DNA from: Bacteroides sp.
GTDB taxonomy: Bacteria > Bacillota > Clostridia > Lachnospirales > Lachnospiraceae
Direction of reading: 5' to 3'
DNA length: 64,000 nt
NCBI GenBank assembly: GCA_023666705.1
Contig: JAMPBO010000006.1
Coordinates: forward strand, 32,461 to 96,460
Under the pieces are notes generated by a model. That model saw nothing but the letters and a program-made list of their open reading frames with translations. It was not told where the DNA came from and ran no database searches. Positions 8,473 to 60,978 of the stretch are shown here, in pieces (the first letter of the stretch is position 1; each line of letters starts with the position of its first letter). Made by a program: the position numbers and the translations under genes.

Positions 8473-11400
8473 ATGAATAAGATAAAACGGATGATTGCTT
8501 ATATGCTTGTTTTTACCATGACAATCGGCTGTATTTTTGTCAGCAACCCAAATGTGGCATATGCAACAGACGATAATTGGCATATACTTACGGATGTTCA
8601 AGGGTCAGCTGTTGAGGTTCGGTTTAGTGATGATAAGACTGCTTCCTTTGAACTGTCTGCATTTTGCAACAATGTGTACATACCTGTCGGAAATGATGAG
8701 GCTGTTTATGGGCACAGTAAAATAGGACTGTATCATTTCGTCCTTGGAGCAAATGAAAGCTATAGGGTTATGTTTTCCTATGACAGTACAGATACCACGG
8801 CTGCGGATATGGAGGGCGGTGCACTTTATGTATATGAGGGAACGAATGCCACATCCAAGCCGTATACAAGTGCATGTGTGCTTACAAATGCGGAGGATAC
8901 AGGCGAGTGCCTCGTAACCAATGCAAATGAAACGGCAATGGACTGCTATCTTGTGTATGTGGGAAATAAAAGGGCGATATGTAAGATTGAGTCTGTTTTA
9001 TCAGTGGGGACTATAACCACACCTGATAATATATTGGTTGCAGGTGAGAGCGTCAGCGGTGTGGTCAGTGATACGGTGTATTCCTACGTGGTATCCCCTG
9101 AAAGCGGAAACCGCACCATAAAGATGGGAACAGGCGTACTGCTTGGACTGGACATTCCAGCAAATGCAAACCTGATTGTGGATGTGGGAGTGTTAAACAG
9201 CTTATACATTTACGGAGTGGATGCGTTGGATCAGGGAACCTATCAGGGCTTAAACATAAGCAGGGTGTCGGCTGGGAAATATTCCATAGGTAACCGACAG
9301 GATATGGAACTGCCTGTTTATGTGTGGGTTGCAACTGCTGCAACGGAATATACGGTTACGTCTGAGGTTGACGAGAGCATGCCCCTGACAGAAGCAAAAC
9401 CGCTTCGTACTCTGTTAAGACCGACCCAGATAGATGATTTAATTTATAATATCATGGACAGGGAAAATTATGTGGCAGGAAATTTTGCGGGAACTTATAT
9501 TGAGGGACTGGCATACATGCTTGAGGCGGGAACCTATGACTTTAACTTTTCCTATCAGGACGCAGGGGGCTTCATGGATTATGAGTTTAATAACAGTCAC
9601 CTTTACATCATTGATCCTGAGGATGGAAGTTATGAAATTGAAATTCTCCAGTCAAAAAAGGTGAAGATGTCATATCACCTTGTCGTGCCTGAGGGAGAAA
9701 CAAGGTATGTCATATTTAAACCAGGGGCGGAGGGAAATTACTACGGCGGTGAATGGACCATGGAGCTTGGCGGCTTTGAGGATGCCTCCACTGCATTTAA
9801 GGTTCCGGCAAACCCCAAGGATGTCTACATTTATGGCTGGGATAATGAAATTGAGGAGAAACTGAATTATTTTTATGAGGAATATCCGCAGTATAAGGAC
9901 AAGGTGCATTTTATAAGTCTGGATGCAAAGGGGCAGGTGGACAAATATAAAAGTCTGTTAAATACAGCGGCAAAAGGCAGCGAAAAGCCGACCCTGCTTG
10001 TGGCTGATATGTCAGTGATGGCTGAAATGAAACCGCTTATGGTGCCGGCAAGCAGTCTTGGTATAACCAAAAAAATGTACAATTCCTACTTGTACGAGGA
10101 GCTTTTGGGAAGTGATGCCCAAGGGCTAAAGGGACTTGCAGGCAGTGTACAGCCCGGATGCTTTATTTACAGGACAGATATAGCGGAGGCGGTTTTGGGA
10201 ACCTCCCAGCCTGAGGAGGTTGAGGCAAAGCTGGCAGATTGGGAAAGCTTTCTAAGTGTGGCGGCTGACATGAAGGCGGCAGGATACTTTATGACATCGG
10301 GGTCAGACCGGTTAAATGAGATGGCAAAGGGCTTTGACACTGAGGTTGACTATTATGGGCAGCTTACCGCAAATGGGTATGATACGGGTAATGTACTTGG
10401 CTCTGAGGAATGGAAGACGGATTTGGCGGGAGATACCTTTGGATTTTTTGGCTCTGTTTCCATGGTAACGGAGCTTGATTCTGATTTGTCCTACAATATG
10501 TGTGTGGGACCGTTAAGCTTCAGCTTTGGCGGAACATACATAGGCGGAACAAGTGAGGCTGTCGGAAATCCCTTGGCGGGACTTGTGCTTTATACCCTTT
10601 GCTGTGATCCTTATGTGATGTATAATATAGCTGCGGATAAGGGAGTCATTCCAAATAATCAGGCGGTTGTGGAAAAGCTGATAAACGACAATCGTGGATT
10701 TACAGGTGATGAATACGCAAATATGGGTGGTCAAAATCCGCTTAAAATGTTGGATAGTGCAGAGCAAAAAAGAGGCGTTGGCATAGGACCTTACACGATA
10801 ACCTATGTGCTTAATTCAGGAAAAAACAATGCGTCTAATCCTGCAGCATACAGCAGATATACGGGTGACATTCTGCTGGCAGCACCGACAAGAACAGGAT
10901 ATACATTCGGCGGCTGGTACAAGGATGCTGCATGTAAGACAAAAATAACAACGATACCGAAAGGCAGCTTAGGTGAGGTTACCCTTTATGCAAAATGGAC
11001 CGCAAATAAATATACCATAGAATTTGTTCCAAATGGTGCAACCAAAGGAACCATGAAGAAAATCAGTGCCACATATGACGTGGGCAAGACTTTAAGCAGC
11101 AATGCATTTAAACGGACGGGATATACATTTGCAGGCTGGAATACAAGGGCTGACGGCAAAGGAAAAACCTACAAAAACAAGGCAGCAGTTAAAAACCTTA
11201 CGGCTTCCGCAAATGGAACCGTGAAGCTTTACGCTACATGGAAAGCAACAAAATATACCGTCAAATATTATTTGCGGGGCGGAAAAAATAACAGCAAAAA
11301 TCCTACGGCATATTATGTGACCTCGTCTACAAAAACCCTTAAAAGTCCGAAACGGACGGGATACACATTTGTTGGCTGGTACAGTGATGCAAAGTATAAG

Positions 11401-11721
11401 AAAAAGGTTAAGAGCATAAAGAAGGGAAGTACGGGAAACAAAAAGCTTTATGCAAAATGGAAACCAAACCGATACAAAATTGTATTTAAGGGCAATGGGG
11501 CAACCAGCGGAAAAATGTCCTCTCTTCTCTCAAGGAAGTATGGAACAACGTATCGGTTACCTGCAAATAAGTTTGTGCGGGATGGATACACATTTGTTGG
11601 CTGGAGCCTGAAGCCAAATGCAAAGAAGATATACAAAAATAAGGCAAAAATAAAAAATTTAACCTCCAAATCGGGCGGAACGGTAACCCTTTATGCACGT
11701 TGGAAGAAAAATAAAAATTAA
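8473..11721 (+). CDS. Large secreted cell-surface protein with C-terminal Listeria-Bacteroides (Flg_new) repeats and lysine-rich tail
   Basis: Signal peptide MNKIKRMIAYMLVFTMTIGCIFVSNPNVAYA. There are at least 4 tandem ~70-aa units of the RTGYTFxGW...LYAKW type from about residue 770. The C-terminal end is basic (WKKNKN). Confidence 0.75.
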   Translation: MNKIKRMIAYMLVFTMTIGCIFVSNPNVAYATDDNWHILTDVQGSAVEVRFSDDKTASFELSAFCNNVYIPVGNDEAVYGHSKIGLYHFVLGANESYRVMFSYDSTDTTAADMEGGALYVYEGTNATSKPYTSACVLTNAEDTGECLVTNANETAMDCYLVYVGNKRAICKIESVLSVGTITTPDNILVAGESVSGVVSDTVYSYVVSPESGNRTIKMGTGVLLGLDIPANANLIVDVGVLNSLYIYGVDALDQGTYQGLNISRVSAGKYSIGNRQDMELPVYVWVATAATEYTVTSEVDESMPLTEAKPLRTLLRPTQIDDLIYNIMDRENYVAGNFAGTYIEGLAYMLEAGTYDFNFSYQDAGGFMDYEFNNSHLYIIDPEDGSYEIEILQSKKVKMSYHLVVPEGETRYVIFKPGAEGNYYGGEWTMELGGFEDASTAFKVPANPKDVYIYGWDNEIEEKLNYFYEEYPQYKDKVHFISLDAKGQVDKYKSLLNTAAKGSEKPTLLVADMSVMAEMKPLMVPASSLGITKKMYNSYLYEELLGSDAQGLKGLAGSVQPGCFIYRTDIAEAVLGTSQPEEVEAKLADWESFLSVAADMKAAGYFMTSGSDRLNEMAKGFDTEVDYYGQLTANGYDTGNVLGSEEWKTDLAGDTFGFFGSVSMVTELDSDLSYNMCVGPLSFSFGGTYIGGTSEAVGNPLAGLVLYTLCCDPYVMYNIAADKGVIPNNQAVVEKLINDNRGFTGDEYANMGGQNPLKMLDSAEQKRGVGIGPYTITYVLNSGKNNASNPAAYSRYTGDILLAAPTRTGYTFGGWYKDAACKTKITTIPKGSLGEVTLYAKWTANKYTIEFVPNGATKGTMKKISATYDVGKTLSSNAFKRTGYTFAGWNTRADGKGKTYKNKAAVKNLTASANGTVKLYATWKATKYTVKYYLRGGKNNSKNPTAYYVTSSTKTLKSPKRTGYTFVGWYSDAKYKKKVKSIKKGSTGNKKLYAKWKPNRYKIVFKGNGATSGKMSSLLSRKYGTTYRLPANKFVRDGYTFVGWSLKPNAKKIYKNKAKIKNLTSKSGGTVTLYARWKKNKN

Positions 11722-21706: not shown

Positions 21707-23995
21707 ATGAGACGATTTAAAAAAATTGCCGCAGTTGCTGCCATGTTTGCTTTGGCACTTTCCACATTTGGTTGCGGAAAAAAGGAGGAGGAACCAACTT
21801 CCACAAACACGGAAACGGTGCAGACAGGCGGGGATGCAACGGATGCTGTTTTGGATGATGGTGACTGGCCTACCACGGAGATGGCGGTCATTGAGGAGGA
21901 GCGTTTTATTACCGTGGAAGGAGAGGATGTAATCGGAATTAACTTCGACGACAATGAGCTCCACGGATTTGTTACATATGAAAATGGCGGTAAATATAAA
22001 CTGAATGCAGAAAACGGAGAAATGGTTGCGGACATAGAAAAAACGGGCACTGTTGAGCATGGCTGTCAGCTTTATTTTGACGGATTCACCATGGCAAAGG
22101 GCTGTGAGTATACCCTTTCCTTTGATGTGTATTCGACGGTTGACCGTATCGTTGAGTGGAGAGTACAGATAAACGGCGGGGACTATCATGCATACGCAAG
22201 CGACAAGGTAAATCTGACTTCAGAAAAGCAGACGGTTACACAAACCTTTGTCATGGAAGAAAATTCGGACCCTGCACCACGTTTTGTTGTAAATATGGGT
22301 GCGTTTGAGGGCATGGGTGAGGTAGGAGCCCACCAGATACATTTTGACAATATTTCACTTATCGTGTCTGACAGTTCAAATGCAGAGGATATAAAGGGTG
22401 CACCGATTCCGGTACCTGTAAAGGTCAATCAGATTGGATATAGACCGGATGACGTAAAGACGGTAATCACAACCTCTGATGCAGATGAAAAATTTAAGAT
22501 AGTGGACGCAAAAACGGATGAAACCGTATATGTTGGAAAATATAATGAAGAGCTTGTATATGATGTATCGGTAAGCTCGGTTGTTAAGGTGGGCGATTTT
22601 ACGGAGGTAAAGACACCGGGAACCTACAAGGTATTATCCAGCCCATCGGGATATTCCTACGAGTTTAGCATAGGTGACGGATTGTATGACGATATTTACA
22701 GGGATGTCGTTCTTATGTTGTATAACCAGAGGTGTGGATGTAAGCTGGATGGCAGTATCTCAGGAGATTTTGCACATGAGGCATGTCATATGGAGGATGC
22801 AGTTGTCTATGACTCAACAGAAACCCGTTCCGTGACAGGCGGATGGCATGATGCAGGAGATTACGGACGCTATGTTGTTCCTGGGGCAAAGACTGTTCAG
22901 GATTTATTGCTTGCATACGAGGATTATAACTATACAGATGACAGCATAGGAATACCGGAAAGCGGAAACGGCGTTCCTGATTTGCTGGATGAGGCAAGAT
23001 ATGAGCTTGAGTGGATGCTCAAAATGCAGGATGAATCGTCAGGTGGTGTATACCATAAAGTAACAGCCCTTGTATTCCCTGAAACCGTTCTTGCCGTGGA
23101 GGAGACGGACCAGATGGTGCTTGCACCGATATCATATGCTGCAACAGCAGATTTTGCAGCCGTGATGGCAAAGGCATCCATTGTTTATCAGGATTTTGAT
23201 GCAGATTTTGCGGATGCGTGTCTGGATGCAGCGGTAACGGCTTACGGTTATATCGAGGCGAACCCGGATAAGAAAGTATTCAAAAACCCGGAGGATATTG
23301 TTACGGGAGAATATCCTGATGCACAGCTTGAGGATGAGTTTGTGTGGGCATCCGGTGAGCTTTATATCGCAACAGGTGATGATAAATATAAGACTGCGTT
23401 AAGCACGGCACTTGACGAAAATTTCATGAAGGGACTTGGATGGGCAAGCATCGGAACCTATGCAATCTATGATTTGGCAAAGGCAGAGGGCATTGACGAA
23501 AGCATAAAATCCAAGGCAAATGATATGGTAGTTGCAACAGCAGACAAGTTGGTTAAAACATGTGGGGACAGTGCTTTTTCCATAGGGCTTAACTCTTCAT
23601 TCCCATGGGGCAGTAACATGACGGTTGCAAATGATGGTATGCTGCTTTTGATGACGGCAAATCTTACAGGTGACGATCAATATCTTGAATATGCACAGAA
23701 GCATAGGGATTATATTTTCGGAACAAACGGAACGGCATACTGTTATGTTACAGGCTACGGGTCACTTTCACCACAGGGAACACACCACAGACCTTCGCAG
23801 GTATTAGGCAAGACCATGCCGGGTATGCTTGTAGGAGGACCAAATTCAAATCTGGAGGATCCATATGCGGTTGCCGTTTTGACAGGACTTCCTGCTGCAC
23901 TTGCGTATGTTGACAACGACCAGAGTTTTTCATGTAATGAAGTTACGATTTACTGGAATTCGCCGCTTATTTATCTTATGACGGGCTTAAAGTAA
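21707..23995 (+). CDS. Glycoside hydrolase family 9 endoglucanase lipoprotein (CelD-N/Ig-like + GH9 catalytic)
   Basis: Lipobox LSTFGC. GH9 signature GGWHDAGDYGRYV. Catalytic region ~residues 300-760. Confidence 0.85.
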   Translation: MRRFKKIAAVAAMFALALSTFGCGKKEEEPTSTNTETVQTGGDATDAVLDDGDWPTTEMAVIEEERFITVEGEDVIGINFDDNELHGFVTYENGGKYKLNAENGEMVADIEKTGTVEHGCQLYFDGFTMAKGCEYTLSFDVYSTVDRIVEWRVQINGGDYHAYASDKVNLTSEKQTVTQTFVMEENSDPAPRFVVNMGAFEGMGEVGAHQIHFDNISLIVSDSSNAEDIKGAPIPVPVKVNQIGYRPDDVKTVITTSDADEKFKIVDAKTDETVYVGKYNEELVYDVSVSSVVKVGDFTEVKTPGTYKVLSSPSGYSYEFSIGDGLYDDIYRDVVLMLYNQRCGCKLDGSISGDFAHEACHMEDAVVYDSTETRSVTGGWHDAGDYGRYVVPGAKTVQDLLLAYEDYNYTDDSIGIPESGNGVPDLLDEARYELEWMLKMQDESSGGVYHKVTALVFPETVLAVEETDQMVLAPISYAATADFAAVMAKASIVYQDFDADFADACLDAAVTAYGYIEANPDKKVFKNPEDIVTGEYPDAQLEDEFVWASGELYIATGDDKYKTALSTALDENFMKGLGWASIGTYAIYDLAKAEGIDESIKSKANDMVVATADKLVKTCGDSAFSIGLNSSFPWGSNMTVANDGMLLLMTANLTGDDQYLEYAQKHRDYIFGTNGTAYCYVTGYGSLSPQGTHHRPSQVLGKTMPGMLVGGPNSNLEDPYAVAVLTGLPAALAYVDNDQSFSCNEVTIYWNSPLIYLMTGLK

Positions 23996-24011
23996 CAGGC
24001 AGGAGAATATA

Positions 24012-26996
24012 ATGATTGATTTCATAATTAAGTGCTTCAAAAACGATAAGATACGGTATTTATTTGCTGGGGGATGCACGACATTTGTAAACTTAATAAC
24101 GTTCTTTTTACTGCGTACTCTGACAAATATAGAGAGAAATGTGTGCAATGTTATAGCCATTATGATGGCTATAACATTTGCCTATTTTGTAAACAAGTTT
24201 TTTGTTTTTCAGATTAAAAGTAAAAATATTGGGGCTGCTATCTCAGAGGCAGTCAGCTTTGTTGCACTGCGAATTGTATCAATGGCAGTTGAAATTATAG
24301 GCTTTGCGATACTGTGTGACAGCTTCCGTTTCAATGAACTGTTGTCAAAGCTTGCGGTGCAGGTAGTTGTTTTGGTTTTGAATTATTTGTTCAGTAAGCT
24401 GTTTGTATTCAAGAAGGAGCGGAAGTCTTTCAAGGAAAGATTTGCGGATGATTACTGCTATTTCATATCATTTGGAATCGTGTTGCTTGTGATGCTTGTT
24501 ATTATGATAGCGGAAAAAATAGTCCCGTTCGGACAGCACAGTCTGACGCTGGTAGACAGCCTCCACCAGTATATTCCATTTTTCTCCGAGTATAGGGACA
24601 AGCTTTTAAATGAGGGAAGCCTTTTTTATACATGGAATGTTGCCATGGGCTCTAATTTCCTGTCTCTTGGTGCTTACTATCTGTCCAGTCCATTCAACCT
24701 GGTTTTTCTGTTGTTTAAGCAGGAACATATTATAGCGGTTTTCTGTGTTATTTCCGTGTTGAAAATCGCACTTAGTGCGGTTACAATGACACATTTCCTA
24801 AGCTGGAAGGATGGAAAAAAATCAAGAAGCATACACATTATTGCAATAGCGGTTGCGTATGCATTAAGCAATTATGTTGTGGGCTATTACTGGAATATTA
24901 TGTGGATGGACTGCATTTTGATATTCCCGCTTGTTATTTTGGGATTTTCCAGACTGATGGAGGAGAAGGATCCGAAGCTTTACGCCTTGTCCTTGTTTTA
25001 TGCACTTTATTGTAATTACTATATTGGATTTATAATTTGTGTATTTCTGATTGTATGGTTTTTGGTTTATAACCATAAGACAGTTAAGAAATTTTTTGTG
25101 GATGGGCTTAAGTTTGCACTGTTCTCCATCGTATCGGCGGGAATGGCAGCATTTTTACTGCTTCCTGCATATAAGGGAATTATGATGACGGCATCTGCGG
25201 AAGCAAAGCTGCCAAAATGGGAATGGTATGGCAACCTGTTTGCCCAACTGAAGCAACAGCTTTTTATGACGCTTCCAATCACAAATCAGGTGTTTGACGG
25301 CGGCGTAAATCTGTATTGCAGCATGTTGGCAGTATTTGCGTTTTTCCTGTATATATTTGCACCGAAGATTAAGCTGTTTGATAAGATACGGTATATGGTT
25401 ATTGTGGCATTCCTGCTGGTAAGCTTTAATTCCACCACGCTTAATTTTGTTTGGCATGGGTTCCATGACCAATATGGCATACCGAACCGGTTTTCATTTT
25501 TGTATTGCTTTGTCATTCTTATCATGGCGTATGATGTGCTGAAAAAATCAAAATATATGAGGGCAATTCAGGTTGTCATTGCGGGGCTTTTGTCCATTGC
25601 GTTTGTCCTTGCATGTGAGAATTACGGAGGTATTTCCACAAAAATTCTGACTGCCTCGATGATTGCAATTGCCATTTATCTGGTAGTATGTCTGCTTCGG
25701 AGCTTTGGTGTATATAAGAGTAGGATGTTTCACATTCTTATTACGGGATTTTGTCTGATTGAGGTGTGTACAAGTGCCGTTCTTGGATTTTTGGACAATG
25801 GGTACTCTGAATACATGAATTATTACGAGACGACTGCGGCTGTAACAGCAGCAAACAAGAGGGTAAATGCACTTGGGGAGGAAGCACAGGCAGGCTTTTA
25901 CAGAAGTGAGCTTATGGACTCCACGGTGTTGGATGAAGCGACATGGCATAATATGCCGAGTATAGGAATCTTTTGTTCTACGGTGCTTGGTGAAATGACT
26001 ACCCTTATGGGAAAGCTGGGATTTTACACGGGTGCAAATGAATTTCTGTATATGGGTGCCACTCCGTTTACAAACTCCATTTTTAATGTGCGGTATTTGT
26101 TGGAGCGGGAGGGCGATTTAAACAATTTTGCATTTGACTTTGTGGAAGATGTGGATGGTGTAGGAATATATGAAAATCCATATCCGCTCTCCATTGGCTT
26201 TGCCGTGTCAGAGGATATAAAGACTTGGGACAGGGGTGCAGGACTTCCGCTTAACAATCAGAACGCTATGGCGGAGGCAATGACGAATATGGATGGAATG
26301 TTTTACAGTATCTATCCTGAGCTGACGGTAAGCAGTGATGACTGTGATGTTACCGTGTCGGGCAGTGTTATTAATTATGAGGCTTATGAGTCAGGAAAGG
26401 CAAGCATTATGGCTTCCTTTACCGCTGGGGTTGATGGTGATTATTACATTAACTGCAGGGGAAATTATGTTACGAAAATCCGCTTTTACGTTAATGGAAA
26501 TGAGATAGCGTATGACAGATACCAAATTCAGATATTCCATTTAGGGGAATTAAAGGAAGGCGATTATGTATCGGTGGAATATTGTTACGATAACATGAAG
26601 GCGGGAACGGAGGTTGCCTCCATGTACATTGCGTTATTCAATGAAAGTGCCTATCAGCAGATTTATAATGTTTTAGATGACAATTTGATGCAGGTTGATG
26701 TACTTGAGGATGGTTATGTAAAAGGTACAATTGATATGCCGGCAGGTAAGGTGTTGTTTACGTCAATTCCATATGATGAAGGCTGGACGTTGTTTGTGGA
26801 CGGAAAAAGGACAAAGTATTATGCCATAGGGGAAGCCCTTATCGGGTTTGATTTGTCTGAGGGTATCCATACAATTGAGCTTAAGTATGTTCCGCAGGGG
26901 CTTTACCTTGGAATCATAATTTCACTTGTGTCATGGATGCTGCTGTTAGGCTGTGTGCTTGCGGGTAACCACAAAAAGGAAGAAAAAAACGACTAA
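24012..26996 (+). CDS. GtrA-like flippase domain fused to YfhO-family membrane glycosyltransferase
   Basis: N-terminal 4-TM GtrA motif (RYLFAGGCTTFVNLITFFLL). Then a >12-TM YfhO-like body with a C-terminal extracytoplasmic domain and a final TM. Confidence 0.6.
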   Translation: MIDFIIKCFKNDKIRYLFAGGCTTFVNLITFFLLRTLTNIERNVCNVIAIMMAITFAYFVNKFFVFQIKSKNIGAAISEAVSFVALRIVSMAVEIIGFAILCDSFRFNELLSKLAVQVVVLVLNYLFSKLFVFKKERKSFKERFADDYCYFISFGIVLLVMLVIMIAEKIVPFGQHSLTLVDSLHQYIPFFSEYRDKLLNEGSLFYTWNVAMGSNFLSLGAYYLSSPFNLVFLLFKQEHIIAVFCVISVLKIALSAVTMTHFLSWKDGKKSRSIHIIAIAVAYALSNYVVGYYWNIMWMDCILIFPLVILGFSRLMEEKDPKLYALSLFYALYCNYYIGFIICVFLIVWFLVYNHKTVKKFFVDGLKFALFSIVSAGMAAFLLLPAYKGIMMTASAEAKLPKWEWYGNLFAQLKQQLFMTLPITNQVFDGGVNLYCSMLAVFAFFLYIFAPKIKLFDKIRYMVIVAFLLVSFNSTTLNFVWHGFHDQYGIPNRFSFLYCFVILIMAYDVLKKSKYMRAIQVVIAGLLSIAFVLACENYGGISTKILTASMIAIAIYLVVCLLRSFGVYKSRMFHILITGFCLIEVCTSAVLGFLDNGYSEYMNYYETTAAVTAANKRVNALGEEAQAGFYRSELMDSTVLDEATWHNMPSIGIFCSTVLGEMTTLMGKLGFYTGANEFLYMGATPFTNSIFNVRYLLEREGDLNNFAFDFVEDVDGVGIYENPYPLSIGFAVSEDIKTWDRGAGLPLNNQNAMAEAMTNMDGMFYSIYPELTVSSDDCDVTVSGSVINYEAYESGKASIMASFTAGVDGDYYINCRGNYVTKIRFYVNGNEIAYDRYQIQIFHLGELKEGDYVSVEYCYDNMKAGTEVASMYIALFNESAYQQIYNVLDDNLMQVDVLEDGYVKGTIDMPAGKVLFTSIPYDEGWTLFVDGKRTKYYAIGEALIGFDLSEGIHTIELKYVPQGLYLGIIISLVSWMLLLGCVLAGNHKKEEKND

Positions 26997-29062: not shown

Positions 29063-29339
29063 GACTGTTGTCTGAGTGCACAGCCTTATGTTGCCAGTCA
29101 ATATGTGTATTTTGAATTGCAACTTTTAAGACCGCAAGAATACCTCCACATTTGAAATTTGCGATGTTTGATTACATGCTGCTTAGGCGAAACTCGCTTC
29201 GCTCAGACATCGCTACGCAGCATGTTTCATCGCAAATTATCAAATGTGGGTATTCTAAACGGTCTTGTTGTCAAATTCAAAATACACATACTGACTGGCA
29301 ACATGGCTGTGTACGAGTTCAAGGGAGTGCCCCACAAGC
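29063..29339. repeat. Inner ~280-bp imperfect palindrome (symmetry centre ~29200)
   Basis: Left half gttgccagtcaatatgtgtattttgaatt...catgctgcttaggcga. Right half tcgctacgcagcatg...aattcaaaatacacatactgactggcaac. The halves are ~85% reverse-complementary. Confidence 0.7.
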
Positions 29340-29465
29340 CATAATAGAAAAGCAAAATATCTTAATATGCTTAGATAGCACAGGTTATAAAAATACAAAA
29401 TAAAAGAGGGCTTGTCACAGGTAAACAACTATGTGCCTTAAATCCTTACTGTGACAGCCCCTTTT
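29340..29465 (-). repeat. Repeat family B copy 2 (inverted); outer right arm of the large palindrome, terminator for the minus-strand gene
   Basis: The reverse complement reads ggggctgtcacagtaaggatttaaggcaca...gacaagccctcttttattttgtatttttata... Confidence 0.75.
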
Positions 29466-33297: not shown

Positions 33298-33538
33298 GGT
33301 ATCCTCCTTTAAAGCTTAAAATGACAACTTTCCTTGTCATTGTGATTATACACACGGAAAGAAATACTGTCAATTGATAAAATGCGGTTGCCGCATATTT
33401 ATAGTATATACATTTCTTTGAAAAAAACAATTGATACTTTGAACAGTTGAATAAAATAGGAAATTAGTGTAAAATTAACCTTAGTTTTGAAGAATTTTAC
33501 ATAGTTTCAAAACAAAAAATAAAAAGGAGGCTTTACGG

Positions 33539-35213
33539 ATGAAAGTAAAGAAAGCAATTTGTATGCTTGTCAGCATACTCATGATTGTGATCTCCCCGAT
33601 ACCTTTTGCGTGCATGGGGGGTAGCAAAGGCTGCTGAAAAATTAACGTATCAGGATTGGGAATATGAGATACTCGAAGAAGAGTGTGTGAAGATTACCCG
33701 ATATAATGGAAGTGAAGAAGAGGTTGTTATACCTGAGGAAATTGACGGAAAAAAAGTAACTTTCATAGGAACAGGTGCATTTGGTGGAGAAAGTAGTCTG
33801 ACAGGTGTAGAAGTTCCATCAAGTGTAATAAATATAGAAGATTCTGCATTTAATTGCAATAATGATTTTATAATGTATGGAGAGGCAGATTCGGCAGCAC
33901 AGAAGTATGCAATTGAAAACAATATAAAATTTGTTGTTGGAAGTATGCCGGAATCTTCAGTTTGGGTATATTCAGAGTTAGATGATGGAACTGTGGAGAT
34001 TGTAGAATATCACGGAAGGGGACCGGAAGTTGTTATACCCGAAAAAATTGATGGTAAAACAGTATCGAAGATATTGAGTGATGTATTTGGTGGTGCGAAT
34101 TTGGTAAGTATAAAAATACCATCAGGCGTAACAACCATAGATGAGTACACAGTTGTGAATTGCGACAATTTGGAACGTATAGAAATTCCGGAAAGTGTAA
34201 AACATATAGATCGTTCGGCATTTTATAAATGCAATAAGTTTGTAATATATGGAAAAGAAGGATCTTATGCACATGAATACGCAATTGAAAATAATATAAA
34301 GTTTGTTGCAAACGTGCCTGCGGATCCTATTATTGTCGGAGAAATTTTTATTGACAGGAAGTCAAGGGGTGAATACAAGGTTACAGGGAAATCAACAGTA
34401 TCTTACATGGGGAGAGAATTAACAGCTCCGCTAGTGAAGACCCTTAGAATACCTGATACGGTATTCTATAAGGGAAAAACATTAAAGGTAACAGCAGTAT
34501 ATAAAGGAGCATTTAAAGGAGCATTAGAAGGAACATTAAAGAATTACCATTGCCTAAAAATTTGTCAAGTTATTCTTGGAAAAAATATTACAACAATTGG
34601 AAGTGAAGCTTTTAGTGGGTGTCGTAACCTTCAAATAATAACCTTTAATTCCAACCTTACCAAGATCGGAGACAAGGCATTTTACAATTGTAAAAGGCTT
34701 ACACAGGTAAAGCTAGGCAGTAAGGTAACAACGATAGGCAAGTCAGCATTTGCAGAATGTGAGAAGCTGAATAAGGTAACCCTTGGTTCAGGACTTACCA
34801 CAATCGGAGACAAGGCATTTTACAATTGTAAGGTTCTTACACAGGTAAAGCTAGGCAGTAAGGTGACAACGATAGGCAAGTCAGCATTTGCAGGATGTGA
34901 GAAGCTGAATAAGGTAACCCTTGGTTCAGGACTTACTACAATCGGAGACAGTGCCTTTAACAAGTGTATAGCACTTACCGCTATTACAATTCCGGCAAAG
35001 GTAAAGAAAATAGGAAAGCAGGCGTTCTATGGATGTAAGAAGCTAAAGAGCATAACAATCAGTACAACGAAGCTGAAAAGCTCAAATGTTGGAGCAAATT
35101 CGTTCAAGGGTATATATGCCAAGGCAACGATAAAGGTTCCAAAGAGCAAAAAAGCTGCCTACAAGAAGCTCATAAAGAGCAAGGGTGCAGGCAAGAACGT
35201 GAAATATAAGTAG
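33539..35213 (+). pseudogene. BspA-type leucine-rich-repeat surface protein interrupted by a +1 frameshift in a G6 tract (possible phase-variable gene)
   Basis: RBS AAAAGGAGG precedes ATG at 33539, which encodes the signal peptide MKVKKAICMLVSILMIVISPIPFACMG. The frame then hits TGA at 33635-33637. The long ORF (33606-35213, LRR_5 repeats ITTIGSEAFSGC / LTTIGDKAFYNCK) is in the +1 frame. The junction is GGGGGG at 33616-33621. Removing one G gives ...PFACMGVAKAAEKLTYQD, with a plausible AKA-A signal cleavage site. Confidence 0.6.
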
Positions 35214-35229: not shown

Positions 35230-35260
35230 AGGCAGGCGGTAAAATCGCCTGCCTTGTTAT
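35230..35260. terminator. Bidirectional intrinsic terminator
   Basis: AGGCAGGCG-gtaaaat-CGCCTGCCT flanked by an A-run and TTGTTATT. It sits between the convergent LRR gene and the Rpn gene. Confidence 0.65.
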
Positions 35261-35271
35261 TAGCCAACTAT

Positions 35272-36141
35272 TTAAGTCATATTGATATATTTCTCAGCTT
35301 CTTCGGGAGATAGGTTATATTTATTGATTAGTACTTCTGTGATTTTGCTGTCTGATAAACCGTTTTCCCGAAGGAGGGCAATCGTAGTTGTAATCGTTTC
35401 AGAAATGCCCTGCTTGCGTCCTTCACTACGTCCGATGTCGATGCCTTGTTCTAAGCCATCCTCTACACCTTCTTCATATTTTTCTCGATAATGCATTTCA
35501 AGCGTCATATAATCAATCCTCCACTTCTCATTATTTTTCACGGACTTAACTGCAGTTTCTAGCTTCATGGTAAAATCATCCGATGCTGCCTGACCGTCTA
35601 TGTAATTAAGTAACCGTTTCATTTCAGGTGTTATATCGTCCATCGTACCCTTGGTATTTAATATAATCTTTGTTGTCTCATCGCCAAGACTGATTTCGTA
35701 ATCCTGTAAGCATCTGTTTTCAAATGTGTAAATATGTCGTCCCTTGCCGAATAAATCAAAGGTACAGACAAAAATGACAAAGCTCCGTTTTAGTTCTTTG
35801 TAGTCTCCGCCCTTTTCCAGTACATTCAGGTCTATCATTCCCTGATAATATCTTGACCGTTTTGGCAGATTTTTATTTATGGATACCTGCATTTCTATAT
35901 TATAAACGGTATTCTTGTCATCTTCAACATAAACATCCAAACGGACAGACTTTGCATCTGCTGTAATGTTTATGGTTTCCTGTGTTCTCGGATATTCTAT
36001 GTCGGAGATGCTTATACCAAGTATTGTTTCCAGAAATGGTTTGCAATACTTGGGGTTCCGCATAATAACCCCAAACATGAAATCATCCTTCAGCTCCAGT
36101 TTCTCAAAGCTTTTGACAGTTCTCGTTTCTTTTTTGTTCAT
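35272..36141 (-). CDS. Rpn-family recombination-promoting nuclease / putative transposase (PD-(D/E)xK, YhgA-like)
   Basis: LKDDFMFGVIMRNP, RLDVYVEDDKNTVYNIEMQ and LPKRSRYYQGMIDLNVLEKG are conserved Rpn/YhgA-like blocks. Acidic C-terminal tail. Confidence 0.75.
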   Translation of the reverse strand: MNKKETRTVKSFEKLELKDDFMFGVIMRNPKYCKPFLETILGISISDIEYPRTQETINITADAKSVRLDVYVEDDKNTVYNIEMQVSINKNLPKRSRYYQGMIDLNVLEKGGDYKELKRSFVIFVCTFDLFGKGRHIYTFENRCLQDYEISLGDETTKIILNTKGTMDDITPEMKRLLNYIDGQAASDDFTMKLETAVKSVKNNEKWRIDYMTLEMHYREKYEEGVEDGLEQGIDIGRSEGRKQGISETITTTIALLRENGLSDSKITEVLINKYNLSPEEAEKYINMT

Positions 36142-56590: not shown

Positions 56591-56915
56591 TTCCTCTGCA
56601 TAAAACTTTTTGCGGTTAAATAAACAAAAGCGTCAGACTTTCCATCTTCTAAGACCTAACGACAGAAAGGATGACGCCAAATCCCTTTACCCGGTGGCAA
56701 AGGGCACGTTTAATATACTAGTATGTATTATACCGCTTTAATGTCAATATTACAAGTAAGGAACAAATGGATTGCATGTCCGCAATTTGGGTATAGGTAT
56801 CGTTCATCTCCTGAAACAAAAGTGGGCAGGACTGCCCACCAAAAGGGATTTTGAATTTGATAAAATATGGGGGAAACTCATTAATGATTTAAAAATGAAA
56901 AGGAGGATTTTACTG

Positions 56916-59900
56916 ATGAGGGTAAAAAAGAAACGGGCAGCCCTTTTGCTTGTCTTCTGCATGGTGTTTTCCTTATTCGTGGGAATACCGTTGAATGCAT
57001 CGGCAGAAGAAGGGGAACAAACGGGATTGCTTATCCAGGACGATATATACTGGGATAATGATGGTGTGCCTGCTTTGGAAGAAAATGCACAAACCAAAAA
57101 GGCGACATGGGCGAATGTATTATATGGCTTGACATTGCATCTCAGCTATATGGAAAGCGAGGGAGCTACAGCAACTGTAGTAAGCTTGGAGAACATTACT
57201 GTTACGCTTGATGAAGAGGATGTCAAGGAAAAAACAGTAAAAGCAAACGAAAAGAATAATGAAATGATAGATTTTACTTTCGATGCTGTTGGAGATTATA
57301 TCGTCACATATAATAATTCCAGTATCACTATCCATGTAAGTTATCCAACAATTGGCTTTTATACAACAAATATACCGTCTGTTGATAGCATGATAAAGGA
57401 TGAGATTCAGAAGATAGATGGTGAGGATAAAACAGTTTATATGATTCTTCACCGTGGAGGATGGGAAAAACTGGATTTAGGTTCAGTTCAGTATACAAAA
57501 GATGATGAGGAAAACATTGATGCTGGTTATTTTACAATAACAGGACCATCGAAAACGTTATCAACGGATCCATCTGAGTATCTGACGGAGGAAAATTATG
57601 TATACGAAATCCAAATAAATGAGGACATGAAAGAAAGTTTTTCGTTCAATGTTAAAGTAGACCTATATAGAGTAACTGCGGCTGGGGAGGAGGGAGACCT
57701 AACATATTCTTTTACGGATAATCCAGAGACTTCCCGGCAGGGTATCAATATCAGCTATAAGCAAAAAAAGGATGGACTTTTTGTAGTAGACTGGCTGGAT
57801 TGGGGAACGCCTAAATTAAATGATGACAGTTCACCTGTTCTGGATGATGAGGGTAATGCTGTCTATGAGGAAGATGGTAAGGTTGCTCCAAATCCAAATG
57901 CAATGCCATCGAAGGAAATATGGCAGACTATAAGTGGATGTTCACTGTATCTTGGCTACGCAGCAAATGAAATCGGCGAAGATGCCGCGATGAAAGATTT
58001 AACTCTGGCTCCGGTAACGGCAGAAAACATTACCGTTTTATATGAGGGAACTGCCGCAAAGGAAGACAAGGTGAAATATTATACGAATAAAAATTGGGAT
58101 GCAGAAGGCAACGAAGTAACGAACGATACTATAACGGATTTTGAATTTTACAGGACTGGAACATACACAATTCAATATACGAAGGATGATGTAACCTCTT
58201 CCGTTACAGTATATGTGTCCCTTCCGGAAGTGGGTTTTTATTCTTCAAACACGGCTTCAGAGAGTACTTACATGAGAGACGGAAACTATGAGAGAGGCAC
58301 GGAAAAAAGCTTTTATGTAATACCAAGACCAGAAAATGGTGAGGATGCAACAACCTATACTTATAAGCTCGAAACAGAAGAGGTTCCTGACGGAGCAGTT
58401 TATGTCGAGGTGGATGGAGCTGCACTTAATCCTGAGGCAGAGTATACTGATACGGCAAAGATTACCATTACTGCAGATGCAAGGGGTGGATTTGGTTTAA
58501 AGGCGAGGGGCGTCGCTACTCCTGCTGAGGGAGAACCATGGGAATTTGACTACTATATTTATTGTGAAGATACCTATGAGACCATTACGATTGAAGATGG
58601 CGTGGAGCATAAAGGCTTTGCAGGCTGTTTTATTTCAAAGGATATGTATGATGCTAGTCGCATGGACCCATCCCTTGCAGATACGACGTTGTACTGGGTA
58701 CATGCTGAGACCATGCAGGGCGTGATTGACAAATTGATGGAGACCGCAGAAGCAGGCACTGTAACAGTTAATGGAAAGTCTTACACAATTGAAAATACCG
58801 GATATATATGGGCAAACGTAAGCTATTTCCCTGAATATAAGGGAAATGCAACGAAGCCGCTATATGTAACGACATCAGATGTAGAGGGAATTTTATTTGC
58901 ATCTAATTTTGAAATGTACTATACAGAGGAAAAAAATGATGTAGGCAGCTATTATGAGGTAAAGCTGTGGGAAAAGAAAAATGGAGGCGGCGAGGTTACC
59001 GACGAGTATGTAAGCTGCCTTATGGATGATGGCAAATATTATCCTGTTACAAGAACCGGGGAAGAGGATAGCACTGAAAACCCATTGAAATTTAATGTAA
59101 CGACTGACGGAGAGGGAAAAACAGAAGACGAATTAATAGGTGAAGGTTACGTTCTAAATGAAGGGTATGGAATCGGTTGTCAGTGGCCGGAGCTGCATGT
59201 AGACGCTACGACAAATGTAAAGATTATTGGAGACTTTTCCGAAGCAGCAGAAAATAGGGCAAACGTTTATCTTGGACTTTACAAGGATTCTGATATTGTT
59301 TCCCTTATTGTAGATGGAGAAGAAAATGAGGACGGAAACTTTGACTTCAAGGAAATTACCAAGAATGATATCGGAAAAGCTGATATTACAACCAACAAAG
59401 GCTTGGTTGTAAAGGTCAATGAATTAAAGGCAACCATGGACGCAACCGTTGTGGGTAATTTCATCAGTGCTGATGCGGTAACCATTGAGGAGGACGGAGG
59501 CAAAGCACTTCGTGACAAGATTGCCATTGAGGAGTTATTTGCTGATGACGAGGACTTAAAGAAAGCAATTATAGATGGAGAAGCACTGGATGTATCCATG
59601 AATGTAAAAACCGTGGAAAGCAGCGAAACAGAGTCTGCTCCCGTAAAGGAAGGAATTAATAAAATATCAACCTTAATTGGCAGCGGTAAAAATAAGACCT
59701 CCAAGATTCAGTATCTGGATATCGGATTGCAGTATCAGGTTGGTACAAAGACAGGCGATATCGCAGAGACGAAAGAGGATATTACGGTAAGCATTGACCT
59801 TCCAAAGGATTTTGCAAAGGCACATGCGGATTTATCAAAGTCATGGACACCGGTTGTATACCGTTACCATGATGGAAAAGCAGAAAAATTGGATTCTGCA

Positions 59901-60920
59901 TTTAAAGACGGAAAGCTGAAATTTGCAACAGGAAAGTTTTCTGTATATGCAGTAGCAATTGAGGAGGTTGTGCCAACCGCTATCAAGATTACAACCCCTC
60001 CAACCAAAACAAAATATACGGTTGGTGATAAGTTTGATAAGAAGGGAATGGTAGTTCAGGTAACATATTCTGATGGAACGACAAAGAATGTTACGGACTA
60101 TAAGGTATCGACGACTGCTGCTTTGAAAAAGACCGATAAGGCGATTACGGTTACATATGGAACCTGTACCGTAAAGCAGGCAATTACTGTAAGTGAAGTG
60201 GCAACCAAGGTAGGAGATACGGTGACCGTAGGTGGTAATACATACAAGGTTACCAGTGTTAAGGCAGGCAAGCAGGCTGTTACCCTTACAAGCGGAAGCA
60301 AGACGGCAGCTACAGTTACAATCCCTGCTACGGTTACAATTAAGAATGTAAAGTACAAGGTAACTGCAATTGCAGACAAGGCATTCTATAAACGCACAAA
60401 GCTTACAACCGTTAAGCTTTCAGCTAACGTAACAGCGATTGGTAAGTCTGCATTTGAAGGCTGTAGCAAGCTTAAGAAGGTGACATTTAATAAGAACCTT
60501 AAAACATTAGGCGATAAGGCATTTTACAATTGTAAGGCACTGACGCAGGTGACGCTTGGCAGCAAGGTTACAACAATCGGTAAGTCTGCATTTGCAAGCT
60601 GTACAAAGCTCGCAAAGGTAACACTTGGCACAGGACTTACAACAATAGGAAATACAGCATTCAACAAGTGTACAGCTTTGACATCTGTTGTGATTCCAAA
60701 GAATGTAAGCAAGATTGGAACGCAGGCATTTTACGGATGTAAGAAGTTAAAGACCATAACGATTCAGACAAGCAAGCTGACAACGAAGAATGTGGGAAAT
60801 AAGGCATTCAAGGGAATTTATGCAAAGGCAACCATCAAGGTACCAGCAAAGAAGTTAGCAAGCTATAAGAAAATCTTAAAGGCAAAGGGCGTAGGCTCAA
60901 AGGCTAAGATTAAAAAGTAA
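56916..60920 (+). CDS. Very large secreted surface protein: divergent N-terminal beta-rich region, Big/Ig-like domain, C-terminal BspA-type LRR module, lysine-rich tail
   Basis: RBS AAAAGGAGGA precedes ATG at 56916. The frame is open from 56772, but the signal peptide MRVKKKRAALLLVFCMVFSLFVGIPLNASA begins at 56916. The C-terminal 230 aa are ~65% identical to the C-terminus of the 33606-35213 LRR protein. Confidence 0.75.
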   Translation: MRVKKKRAALLLVFCMVFSLFVGIPLNASAEEGEQTGLLIQDDIYWDNDGVPALEENAQTKKATWANVLYGLTLHLSYMESEGATATVVSLENITVTLDEEDVKEKTVKANEKNNEMIDFTFDAVGDYIVTYNNSSITIHVSYPTIGFYTTNIPSVDSMIKDEIQKIDGEDKTVYMILHRGGWEKLDLGSVQYTKDDEENIDAGYFTITGPSKTLSTDPSEYLTEENYVYEIQINEDMKESFSFNVKVDLYRVTAAGEEGDLTYSFTDNPETSRQGINISYKQKKDGLFVVDWLDWGTPKLNDDSSPVLDDEGNAVYEEDGKVAPNPNAMPSKEIWQTISGCSLYLGYAANEIGEDAAMKDLTLAPVTAENITVLYEGTAAKEDKVKYYTNKNWDAEGNEVTNDTITDFEFYRTGTYTIQYTKDDVTSSVTVYVSLPEVGFYSSNTASESTYMRDGNYERGTEKSFYVIPRPENGEDATTYTYKLETEEVPDGAVYVEVDGAALNPEAEYTDTAKITITADARGGFGLKARGVATPAEGEPWEFDYYIYCEDTYETITIEDGVEHKGFAGCFISKDMYDASRMDPSLADTTLYWVHAETMQGVIDKLMETAEAGTVTVNGKSYTIENTGYIWANVSYFPEYKGNATKPLYVTTSDVEGILFASNFEMYYTEEKNDVGSYYEVKLWEKKNGGGEVTDEYVSCLMDDGKYYPVTRTGEEDSTENPLKFNVTTDGEGKTEDELIGEGYVLNEGYGIGCQWPELHVDATTNVKIIGDFSEAAENRANVYLGLYKDSDIVSLIVDGEENEDGNFDFKEITKNDIGKADITTNKGLVVKVNELKATMDATVVGNFISADAVTIEEDGGKALRDKIAIEELFADDEDLKKAIIDGEALDVSMNVKTVESSETESAPVKEGINKISTLIGSGKNKTSKIQYLDIGLQYQVGTKTGDIAETKEDITVSIDLPKDFAKAHADLSKSWTPVVYRYHDGKAEKLDSAFKDGKLKFATGKFSVYAVAIEEVVPTAIKITTPPTKTKYTVGDKFDKKGMVVQVTYSDGTTKNVTDYKVSTTAALKKTDKAITVTYGTCTVKQAITVSEVATKVGDTVTVGGNTYKVTSVKAGKQAVTLTSGSKTAATVTIPATVTIKNVKYKVTAIADKAFYKRTKLTTVKLSANVTAIGKSAFEGCSKLKKVTFNKNLKTLGDKAFYNCKALTQVTLGSKVTTIGKSAFASCTKLAKVTLGTGLTTIGNTAFNKCTALTSVVIPKNVSKIGTQAFYGCKKLKTITIQTSKLTTKNVGNKAFKGIYAKATIKVPAKKLASYKKILKAKGVGSKAKIKK

Positions 60921-60930
60921 CCAGTAAAAA

Positions 60931-60978
60931 ATGAGGCTGTCGCCTTAGGGGGGAACCCTTAAGGCGGCAGCCTTTTAT
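60931..60978. terminator. Bidirectional intrinsic terminator
   Basis: GAGGCTGTCGCCTTAGGG-gggaac-CCTTAAGGCGGCAGCC followed by TTTTATTT. An A-run precedes it. Confidence 0.65.

Follow-up and report, generated by a model that had tools for sequence, protein, structure and literature searches.

The LRR gene and its frameshift site

The window (the whole stretch of DNA that was analysed, 64 kb in length) carries on its + strand a BspA-type LRR gene whose signal peptide and body are read in different frames. A promoter-like site, TTGAAT-17-TAAAAT, is located at 33447..33475 (+), ∼64 nt 5′ of the start codon; it scored 9/12 in a consensus scan and is a pattern match only. As read directly from the sequence, an RBS AGGAGG is present at 33525..33530 (+) with 8-nt spacing to the start codon ATG at 33539–33541, in keeping with a preliminary description of this DNA that had credited ATG 33539 with a good RBS. 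The frame-0 ORF from this ATG, MKVKKAICMLVSILMIVISPIPFACMGGSKGC, is only 32 codons long and ends at TGA 33635–33637, and this remnant (33539..33637, +) consists of the signal peptide MKVKKAICMLVSILMIVISPIPFACMG followed by the out-of-frame residues GSKGC and the stop codon. The signal peptide has an n-region of charge +3, an h-region of 20 aa with a mean Kyte-Doolittle value of 2.44, and A-x-A at positions −3/−1, and both the direct reading and these features bear out the earlier view of a classical signal peptide that ends at TGA 33635. The LRR body lies, as had been described, in frame +1 relative to the signal peptide, in an ORF of 535 codons (33606..35213) that matches Pfam LRR_5 in three stretches with E = 2.5e-73 (244.4 bits, cut-off 27.7); counted from the junction (…G VAKAAEKLTYQ… to the stop codon), the body occupies 33618..35213 (+), ∼530 codons without interruption. 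The frameshift site between the two parts is a G6 homopolymer, GGGGGG, at 33616..33621 (+), with T on either side and at the coordinates previously assigned to it; the same tract is present in the two other copies of the gene, L001 (JAMPEX MAG) and L006 (JAMPCS MAG).

Tract length was then varied in silico. Deletion of one G (G5) gave a single protein of 557 aa, ...PFACMGVAKA|AEKLTYQ..., and the simulation thereby confirms that five Gs give a seamless secreted protein with an AKA-A cleavage site. A G8 version is also in frame (...CMGGVAKAAE...), a point absent from the preliminary description, and a G7 version stays out of frame, as does G6. A change of tract length within the reading frame thus toggles the frame, with G5/G8 in and G6/G7 out, and the junction peptide of the full-length, frame-restored protein is …AEKLTYQDWEYEILEEECVK. 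Only in the hypothetical G5/G8 versions and in the relatives is the LRR body fused in frame to an export signal; in the G6 allele it is not. The CDS deposited in GenBank (P0001, 508 aa) begins at an internal GTG codon and lacks the signal peptide; it spans 33687..35213 (+), the start at 33687 having been calculated from the 508-aa length and then checked on the sequence.

Tandem Repeats Finder detected a 138-bp tandem duplication within the body (34656..34968, +; 2.3 copies, 92% identical), which corresponds to two LRR units. An intrinsic-terminator-like hairpin of 11 pairs, seven of them G-C, lies 3′ of the gene at 35230..35254 (+), and directly downstream a PD-(D/E)XK ‘transposase’-family (PDDEXK_2) gene on the − strand (35272–36141) converges with the LRR gene and shares this terminator, which is bidirectional. 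No LPXTG motif was seen in the translated LRR body, and a Pfam scan of the body returned only LRR families and no SLH or cell-wall-binding domain. Moreover, a Cys encoded at 33611–33613 is conserved in most family members (junction …PFxC-GDVKAAE), 3–5 residues before the K of KAAE, and falls just before the predicted signal-peptidase site, outside a canonical lipobox. A lipoprotein reading of this conserved Cys was considered and rejected because positions −3 to −1 (P-F-A here; F-I, F-T and L-T in relatives) are unlike a lipobox, and V/A-x-A|A matches a site for signal peptidase I.

Compared with Tannerella forsythia BspA and Pfam LRR_5, the repeat type is the same, and in the intact relatives the signal peptide is N-terminal. 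The present protein differs in its domain layout, with two cap-like modules at the N-terminus, an LRR block at the C-terminus, a conserved basic tail, and neither a Big_2 nor a CTD sorting domain. This very basic C-terminal tail (…KSKKAAYKKLIKSKGAGKNVKYK; 35140–35210 and 60850–60917 in the window, and in P0002–P0011) is conserved at the end of every member of the LRR family, and the 1382-aa paralogue in the window ends in a tail of the same type (…KKLASYKKILKAKGVGSKAKIKK). The tail might be an envelope-retention signal, a role that we put forward as putative.

Signal peptide and body are in frame in the relatives

When the repaired N-terminus was compared by tblastn with the fetched loci, residues 1–26 aligned in one frame and residues 27–74 in another in all three copies of the disrupted gene, with the break exactly at the G run, and the same query aligned in a single frame to every relative from other genomes. 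In ∼10 distinct relatives from other genomes, a signal peptide of the family type, homologous to the frame-0 remnant, continues in frame into a body of at least 410 aa, and the nearest relatives (P0011, P0002, P0003, P0004 and P0007) are intact and 40–45% identical over >90% of the length of the present body. What is read as two ORFs is a single gene, a signal peptide and a BspA-type LRR body that a 1-nt frameshift in the G run has separated; ∼10 relatives keep both parts in one frame, and measured against these intact homologues the disruption is a true one. No true orthologue was found in the species-representative genomes, where the best match is only 51% identical, and hence the matches in these genomes are paralogues or family members rather than orthologues.

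All five of these nearest relatives start with a very similar signal peptide directly joined to the same motif, as in P0011, the closest of them, with MKTKKVICVIVSMLMVATLLTPLTCSEAVKAAEKLTYQDWEY. The G5 version of the present gene has the C-x4-KAAE spacing of P0011, and the spacing of a G8 version would equal that of P0004 (…CMGGTVKAAE). Relatives of the LRR gene occur in tandem arrays in their genomes. The segment that is duplicated in the present gene is single-copy in P0011, and the 138-bp duplication, which adds two LRR units, gives this gene a further source of variation, of the recombination type. In addition, the ∼40 nt that follow the junction (AAGGCTGCTGAAAAATTAACGTATCAGGATTGGGAATA, 33622–33665) are nearly identical to the P0011 gene (L003, 3075–3125) despite 45% protein identity, which may reflect gene conversion or a strong constraint on the 5′-end.

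A probable recent frameshift in one of several surface-protein genes

The truncated 508-aa product is recorded under three protein accessions from three MAG assemblies (MCM1271963.1, MCM1399075.1 and MCM1459466.1), and the G6 run was read directly in all three copies of the gene. The contig JAMPEX010000001.1 (GCA_023664715.1) showed no mismatch to the window over 7.5 kb, the G6 run included, and JAMPCS010000006.1 (GCA_023666045.1) showed eight mismatches in 9,896 positions, again with G6; because eight positions differ, the JAMPCS contig is not a copy of the window contig. The JAMPEX contig stops near window position 29363 and hence cannot have supplied the window, which presumably belongs to the third MAG. 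The three assemblies are essentially one strain, and their agreement is a matter of reproducibility and not of evolutionary fixation. Sister MAGs with adjacent WGS prefixes carry isolate names of the form NALB_78xx, in which NALB stands for Neotoma albigula, the white-throated woodrat. The host of the gene is thus presumably a Clostridia (Lachnospiraceae-like) bacterium of the woodrat gut, the woodrat link being drawn from these accession prefixes.

We consider that the gene has probably suffered a genuine and recent one-base insertion (G5 to G6), and that it represents a hotspot knockout or an incipient pseudogene that is slowly reversible, rather than an evolved switch. In this model, replication slippage would have added one G to a G5 run at the junction of the signal peptide and the mature protein, in one paralogue of a multi-copy, redundant family of secreted BspA-type LRR proteins. 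In the G6 state the RBS and ATG would yield only a 32-residue signal-peptide fragment, and the LRR body, which lacks both an export signal and a convincing start of its own, would effectively not be displayed, so that the allele would be null. This null allele, the consensus in all three assemblies, would be the majority form in the sampled woodrat-gut population. Because the lesion sits in a homopolymer, slippage could in principle restore the frame (G6 to G5, or to G8), though with a tract of this length such reversion should be much slower than switching at dedicated contingency loci. The split, its exact position, its recurrence in the assemblies and the intact relatives are observed; that the mutation went from G5 to G6, that export is lost and that switching is slow is what we infer. 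The loss of one copy would be affordable given a second intact LRR_5 paralogue in the window and the tandem arrays in relatives.

Apart from the frameshift, the gene showed no further degenerative lesions such as extra stops, frameshifts or decayed signals; the body reads through 535 codons without a stop, and neither the RBS, nor the signal peptide, nor the terminator has decayed. This absence of further lesions indicates that the frameshift is recent and, if the gene is a pseudogene, that it is a very young one. Recent pseudogenization had been listed as one option in the preliminary description, and with intact relatives, a reproducible G6 and an undecayed body it is the option that fits best.

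The closest analogue of this lesion is BP0059 of Bordetella pertussis, where almost every strain carries the frameshift and a single natural revertant is known (PMC1891110), and a similarly slow reversion is what we propose here. BP0059 and the C6/C7 run of bvgS in the same species resemble the present gene in having a G/C run of 6–7 nt in the CDS and a truncating frameshift. They differ in belonging to a Gram-negative pathogen with a high-GC genome, in which strain polymorphism has been demonstrated (PMC1891110), whereas the genome studied here has 41.7% GC, its G/C runs are depleted and no polymorphism was observed.

The practical gain is mainly in annotation. The GenBank records that start a 508-aa LRR protein from an internal GTG ought to mark the locus as disrupted, for it is in fact a gene for a secreted protein of about 557 aa that carries a frameshift; the corrected gene model replaces a cytoplasmic product of 508 aa by a secreted one. 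Events of this kind are well known, and the present instance in an LRR gene is new but ordinary, a modest case of turnover among the multi-copy surface proteins of a bacterium from a herbivore gut.

Is the tract a phase-variation switch?

The preliminary description had put forward phase variation as its headline reading. According to this reading the G tract is an SSR switch, kept because slippage reversibly toggles export of the LRR protein, ON at G5/G8 and OFF at G6/G7, and the assemblies happened to catch the OFF state. We regard such a switch as rather unlikely, although several properties of the gene would suit it. The classic place for such a tract is the 5′ coding region of a surface-type gene, and here it falls in that region of an LRR_5 gene with a signal peptide, where changes of ±1 toggle the frame; the intact 1.6-kb body, RBS, signal peptide and terminator, together with the promoter-like site, are equally expected of a reversible OFF state; and the family is multi-copy and fast-evolving, with tandem arrays in relatives, the internal 138-bp duplication and a second paralogue in the window. 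Precedents exist as well, both for the protein type, since BspA-like proteins of Ca. Mycoplasma girerdii phase-vary by repeats (PMC5476646), and for a short tract, in C6/C7 of bvgS in B. pertussis (PMC1891110). The switch and the null allele that we favour differ in rate and in selection for the tract.

The tract itself is short. A cut-off of at least 7 nt for G/C tracts in phase-variable genes was derived by PhasomeIt from experimental data, and its authors note that even this cut-off admits sequences that are perhaps too weakly mutable for efficient switching (PMC6321876). At 6 nt, the present tract is below the hypermutable G/C range by these criteria. The tract length of orthologues and paralogues, which had been suggested as a check, likewise speaks against a switch: across 13 distinct 5′-ends of the family the G run at the junction never exceeds G4 (TGT GGG GAT), the closest relatives have either an interrupted GGGCGG (P0004) or no run at all (P0011), and no tract is present in the LRR_5 paralogue of the window, whose signal peptide is intact. 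Moreover, only two G/C runs of at least 6 nt were observed in the 64 kb, compared with 21.5 ± 6.3 expected from dinucleotide-preserving shuffles, and this approximately tenfold depletion is the opposite of what a genome rich in contingency loci would show. The other G6 run (60948–60953) is non-coding and forms the loop of a terminator hairpin (AGGCTGTCGCCTTAGGGGGGAACCCTTAAGGCGGCAGCCTTTT) after the paralogue.

Tract-length polymorphism was not seen among the three assemblies, all of which have G6; these are consensus sequences of nearly a single strain, in which minor variants are invisible, and the comparison has little power. A search for other tract lengths with a pattern of exact flanks and a variable gap returned no match in GTDB genome contigs and none in JGI metagenome contigs, and a 36-mer from inside the gene had no match in JGI metagenome contigs either. 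On the comparison as a whole, a tract of <7 nt, relatives with at most G4, depleted hexamers and the same length in three assemblies, the headline reading does not hold up well.

In Ca. Mycoplasma girerdii, the BspA-like proteins likewise form a multi-copy family of the BspA/TpLRR type in which a repeat within the CDS causes a truncating frameshift and the consensus is OFF; the repeats there are, however, dinucleotide tracts of at least five units (or G8 for a methylase) that recur in eight paralogues (PMC5476646). Read pile-ups in that organism revealed length variants at 1.7–44%, with an OFF consensus and a minor ON form (PMC5476646), whereas the present gene has a single G6, no other paralogue bears a tract, and no variation was seen in the assemblies. 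The poly-G/C contingency genes of Campylobacter and Neisseria are likewise genes for surface structures with a G tract close to the 5′-end, and tract length sets ON or OFF; their tracts are at least 7 nt and usually 8–13 nt long, conserved across strains and over-represented, and they switch at ∼1e-5 to 1e-2 (PMC6321876), and none of these properties was found here.

Phase variation in gut Clostridia/Lachnospiraceae is mostly ascribed to invertible promoters, and to our knowledge repeat-driven switching in these bacteria is hardly documented. That a short G5/G6 tract should serve as a low-rate but biologically used slipped-strand export switch for a BspA-like LRR adhesin, in commensal fibre-degrading gut Clostridia/Lachnospiraceae, strikes us as improbable. 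Mixed tract lengths, if real, would make this one of the few instances in which a commensal Firmicute varies its surface through repeats, but the comparative evidence makes mixed lengths unlikely.

Assembly error or recoding?

A sequencing or assembly artefact, in which the organism truly has G5 and the gene is intact, would be suspected from the nature of the data, because the source is a metagenome-assembled genome and homopolymers are the commonest sites of indel errors. The platform can be approached through the accession prefixes. From the neighbouring prefixes, JAMPEX and JAMPCS appear to belong to an Illumina woodrat study, whose gut MAGs (PRJNA833303) were obtained from Illumina HiSeq 2500 2×150 reads with metaSPAdes and Autometa (PMC12045624). 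The present MAGs are thus probably also products of Illumina and metaSPAdes, with which consensus indels in a 6-mer are rare, and the same G6 is present in three separately deposited assemblies, one of them differing from the window at eight positions.

The remainder of the window is also free of such breaks. Among the 42 other ORFs scanned, 37 have a Pfam match and none of these looked split at a homopolymer, the other five having no Pfam match and hence not being assessable; the PEPCK ORF gave a weak partial match although it is otherwise full-length. The window contains 131 A/T runs of at least 6 nt, yet no gene among the ORFs with Pfam matches is broken at one. A homopolymer-frameshift scan of the whole window, the output of which was noisy, proposed three junctions joining two substantial ORFs (7155, 46267 and 49670), and these were rejected as frameshifts because they separate distinct, complete and unrelated genes. 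Hence the error that the preliminary description had offered as an alternative is decidedly improbable, given G6 in three MAG assemblies, probable Illumina data and an otherwise clean window. An exact look-up among ∼15 billion proteins found no intact protein of 557 or 558 aa (G5/G8).

Programmed recoding, in which the ribosome would slip by +1 on GGG_G (or by −2, or slippage would occur during transcription) and so yield the full-length secreted protein from G6, is scarcely credible, for even though tRNA-Gly can re-pair perfectly one base forward on GGGG to give exactly the G5 product, and a 121-nt segment that takes in the tract and its 3′ side is more stably folded than shuffled versions (z = −4.3) and includes a small hairpin from 33620, the frameshift is not conserved and every relative is in frame, the A site has no stop or rare codon, no prfB-like Shine-Dalgarno stimulator is present at the right spacing, the hairpin sequence is not conserved in relatives, and G6 is short for RNA-polymerase slippage. 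A −1 programmed frameshift on G_GGG_GGU was rejected separately, because it runs straight into UAG at 33622–33624, as the G7 simulation demonstrates. The folded mRNA segment (33600–33720) has a predicted energy of −33.1 kcal/mol and comprises a 6-bp hairpin at 33620–33635 and a larger one at 33655–33702.

Other features of the window

The second BspA-type LRR_5 protein of the window (56772–60920, about 1340–1382 aa) also contains a Big_3 domain, and its signal peptide (…GIPLNASA|EE) is intact. What it has in common with the frameshifted gene is confined to the C-terminal LRR module and the tail.

All eight differences between the JAMPCS contig and the window are transitions and fall within 90 bp, at 29263–29352 in an intergenic region flanked by convergent genes; the remainder of the 9.9 kb compared is identical. 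The JAMPEX contig ends at ∼29363, beside this patch, which is thus a strain-polymorphic spot that breaks one of the assemblies. The patch folds into a long hairpin of about −33 kcal/mol; compensatory changes were looked for in it and dismissed, as there is one G.U to G-C change and no convincing covariation, and an Rfam scan of the window, the patch included, returned nothing at gathering score.

Among the context genes (21707–26996 and 8473–11721) are a GH9 cellulase with CBM4_9, a YfhO/GtrA fusion and a 1082-aa protein with Listeria-Bacteroides (Flg_new) repeats, and these are consistent with an anaerobe of the gut that degrades fibre and has a rich repertoire at its surface.
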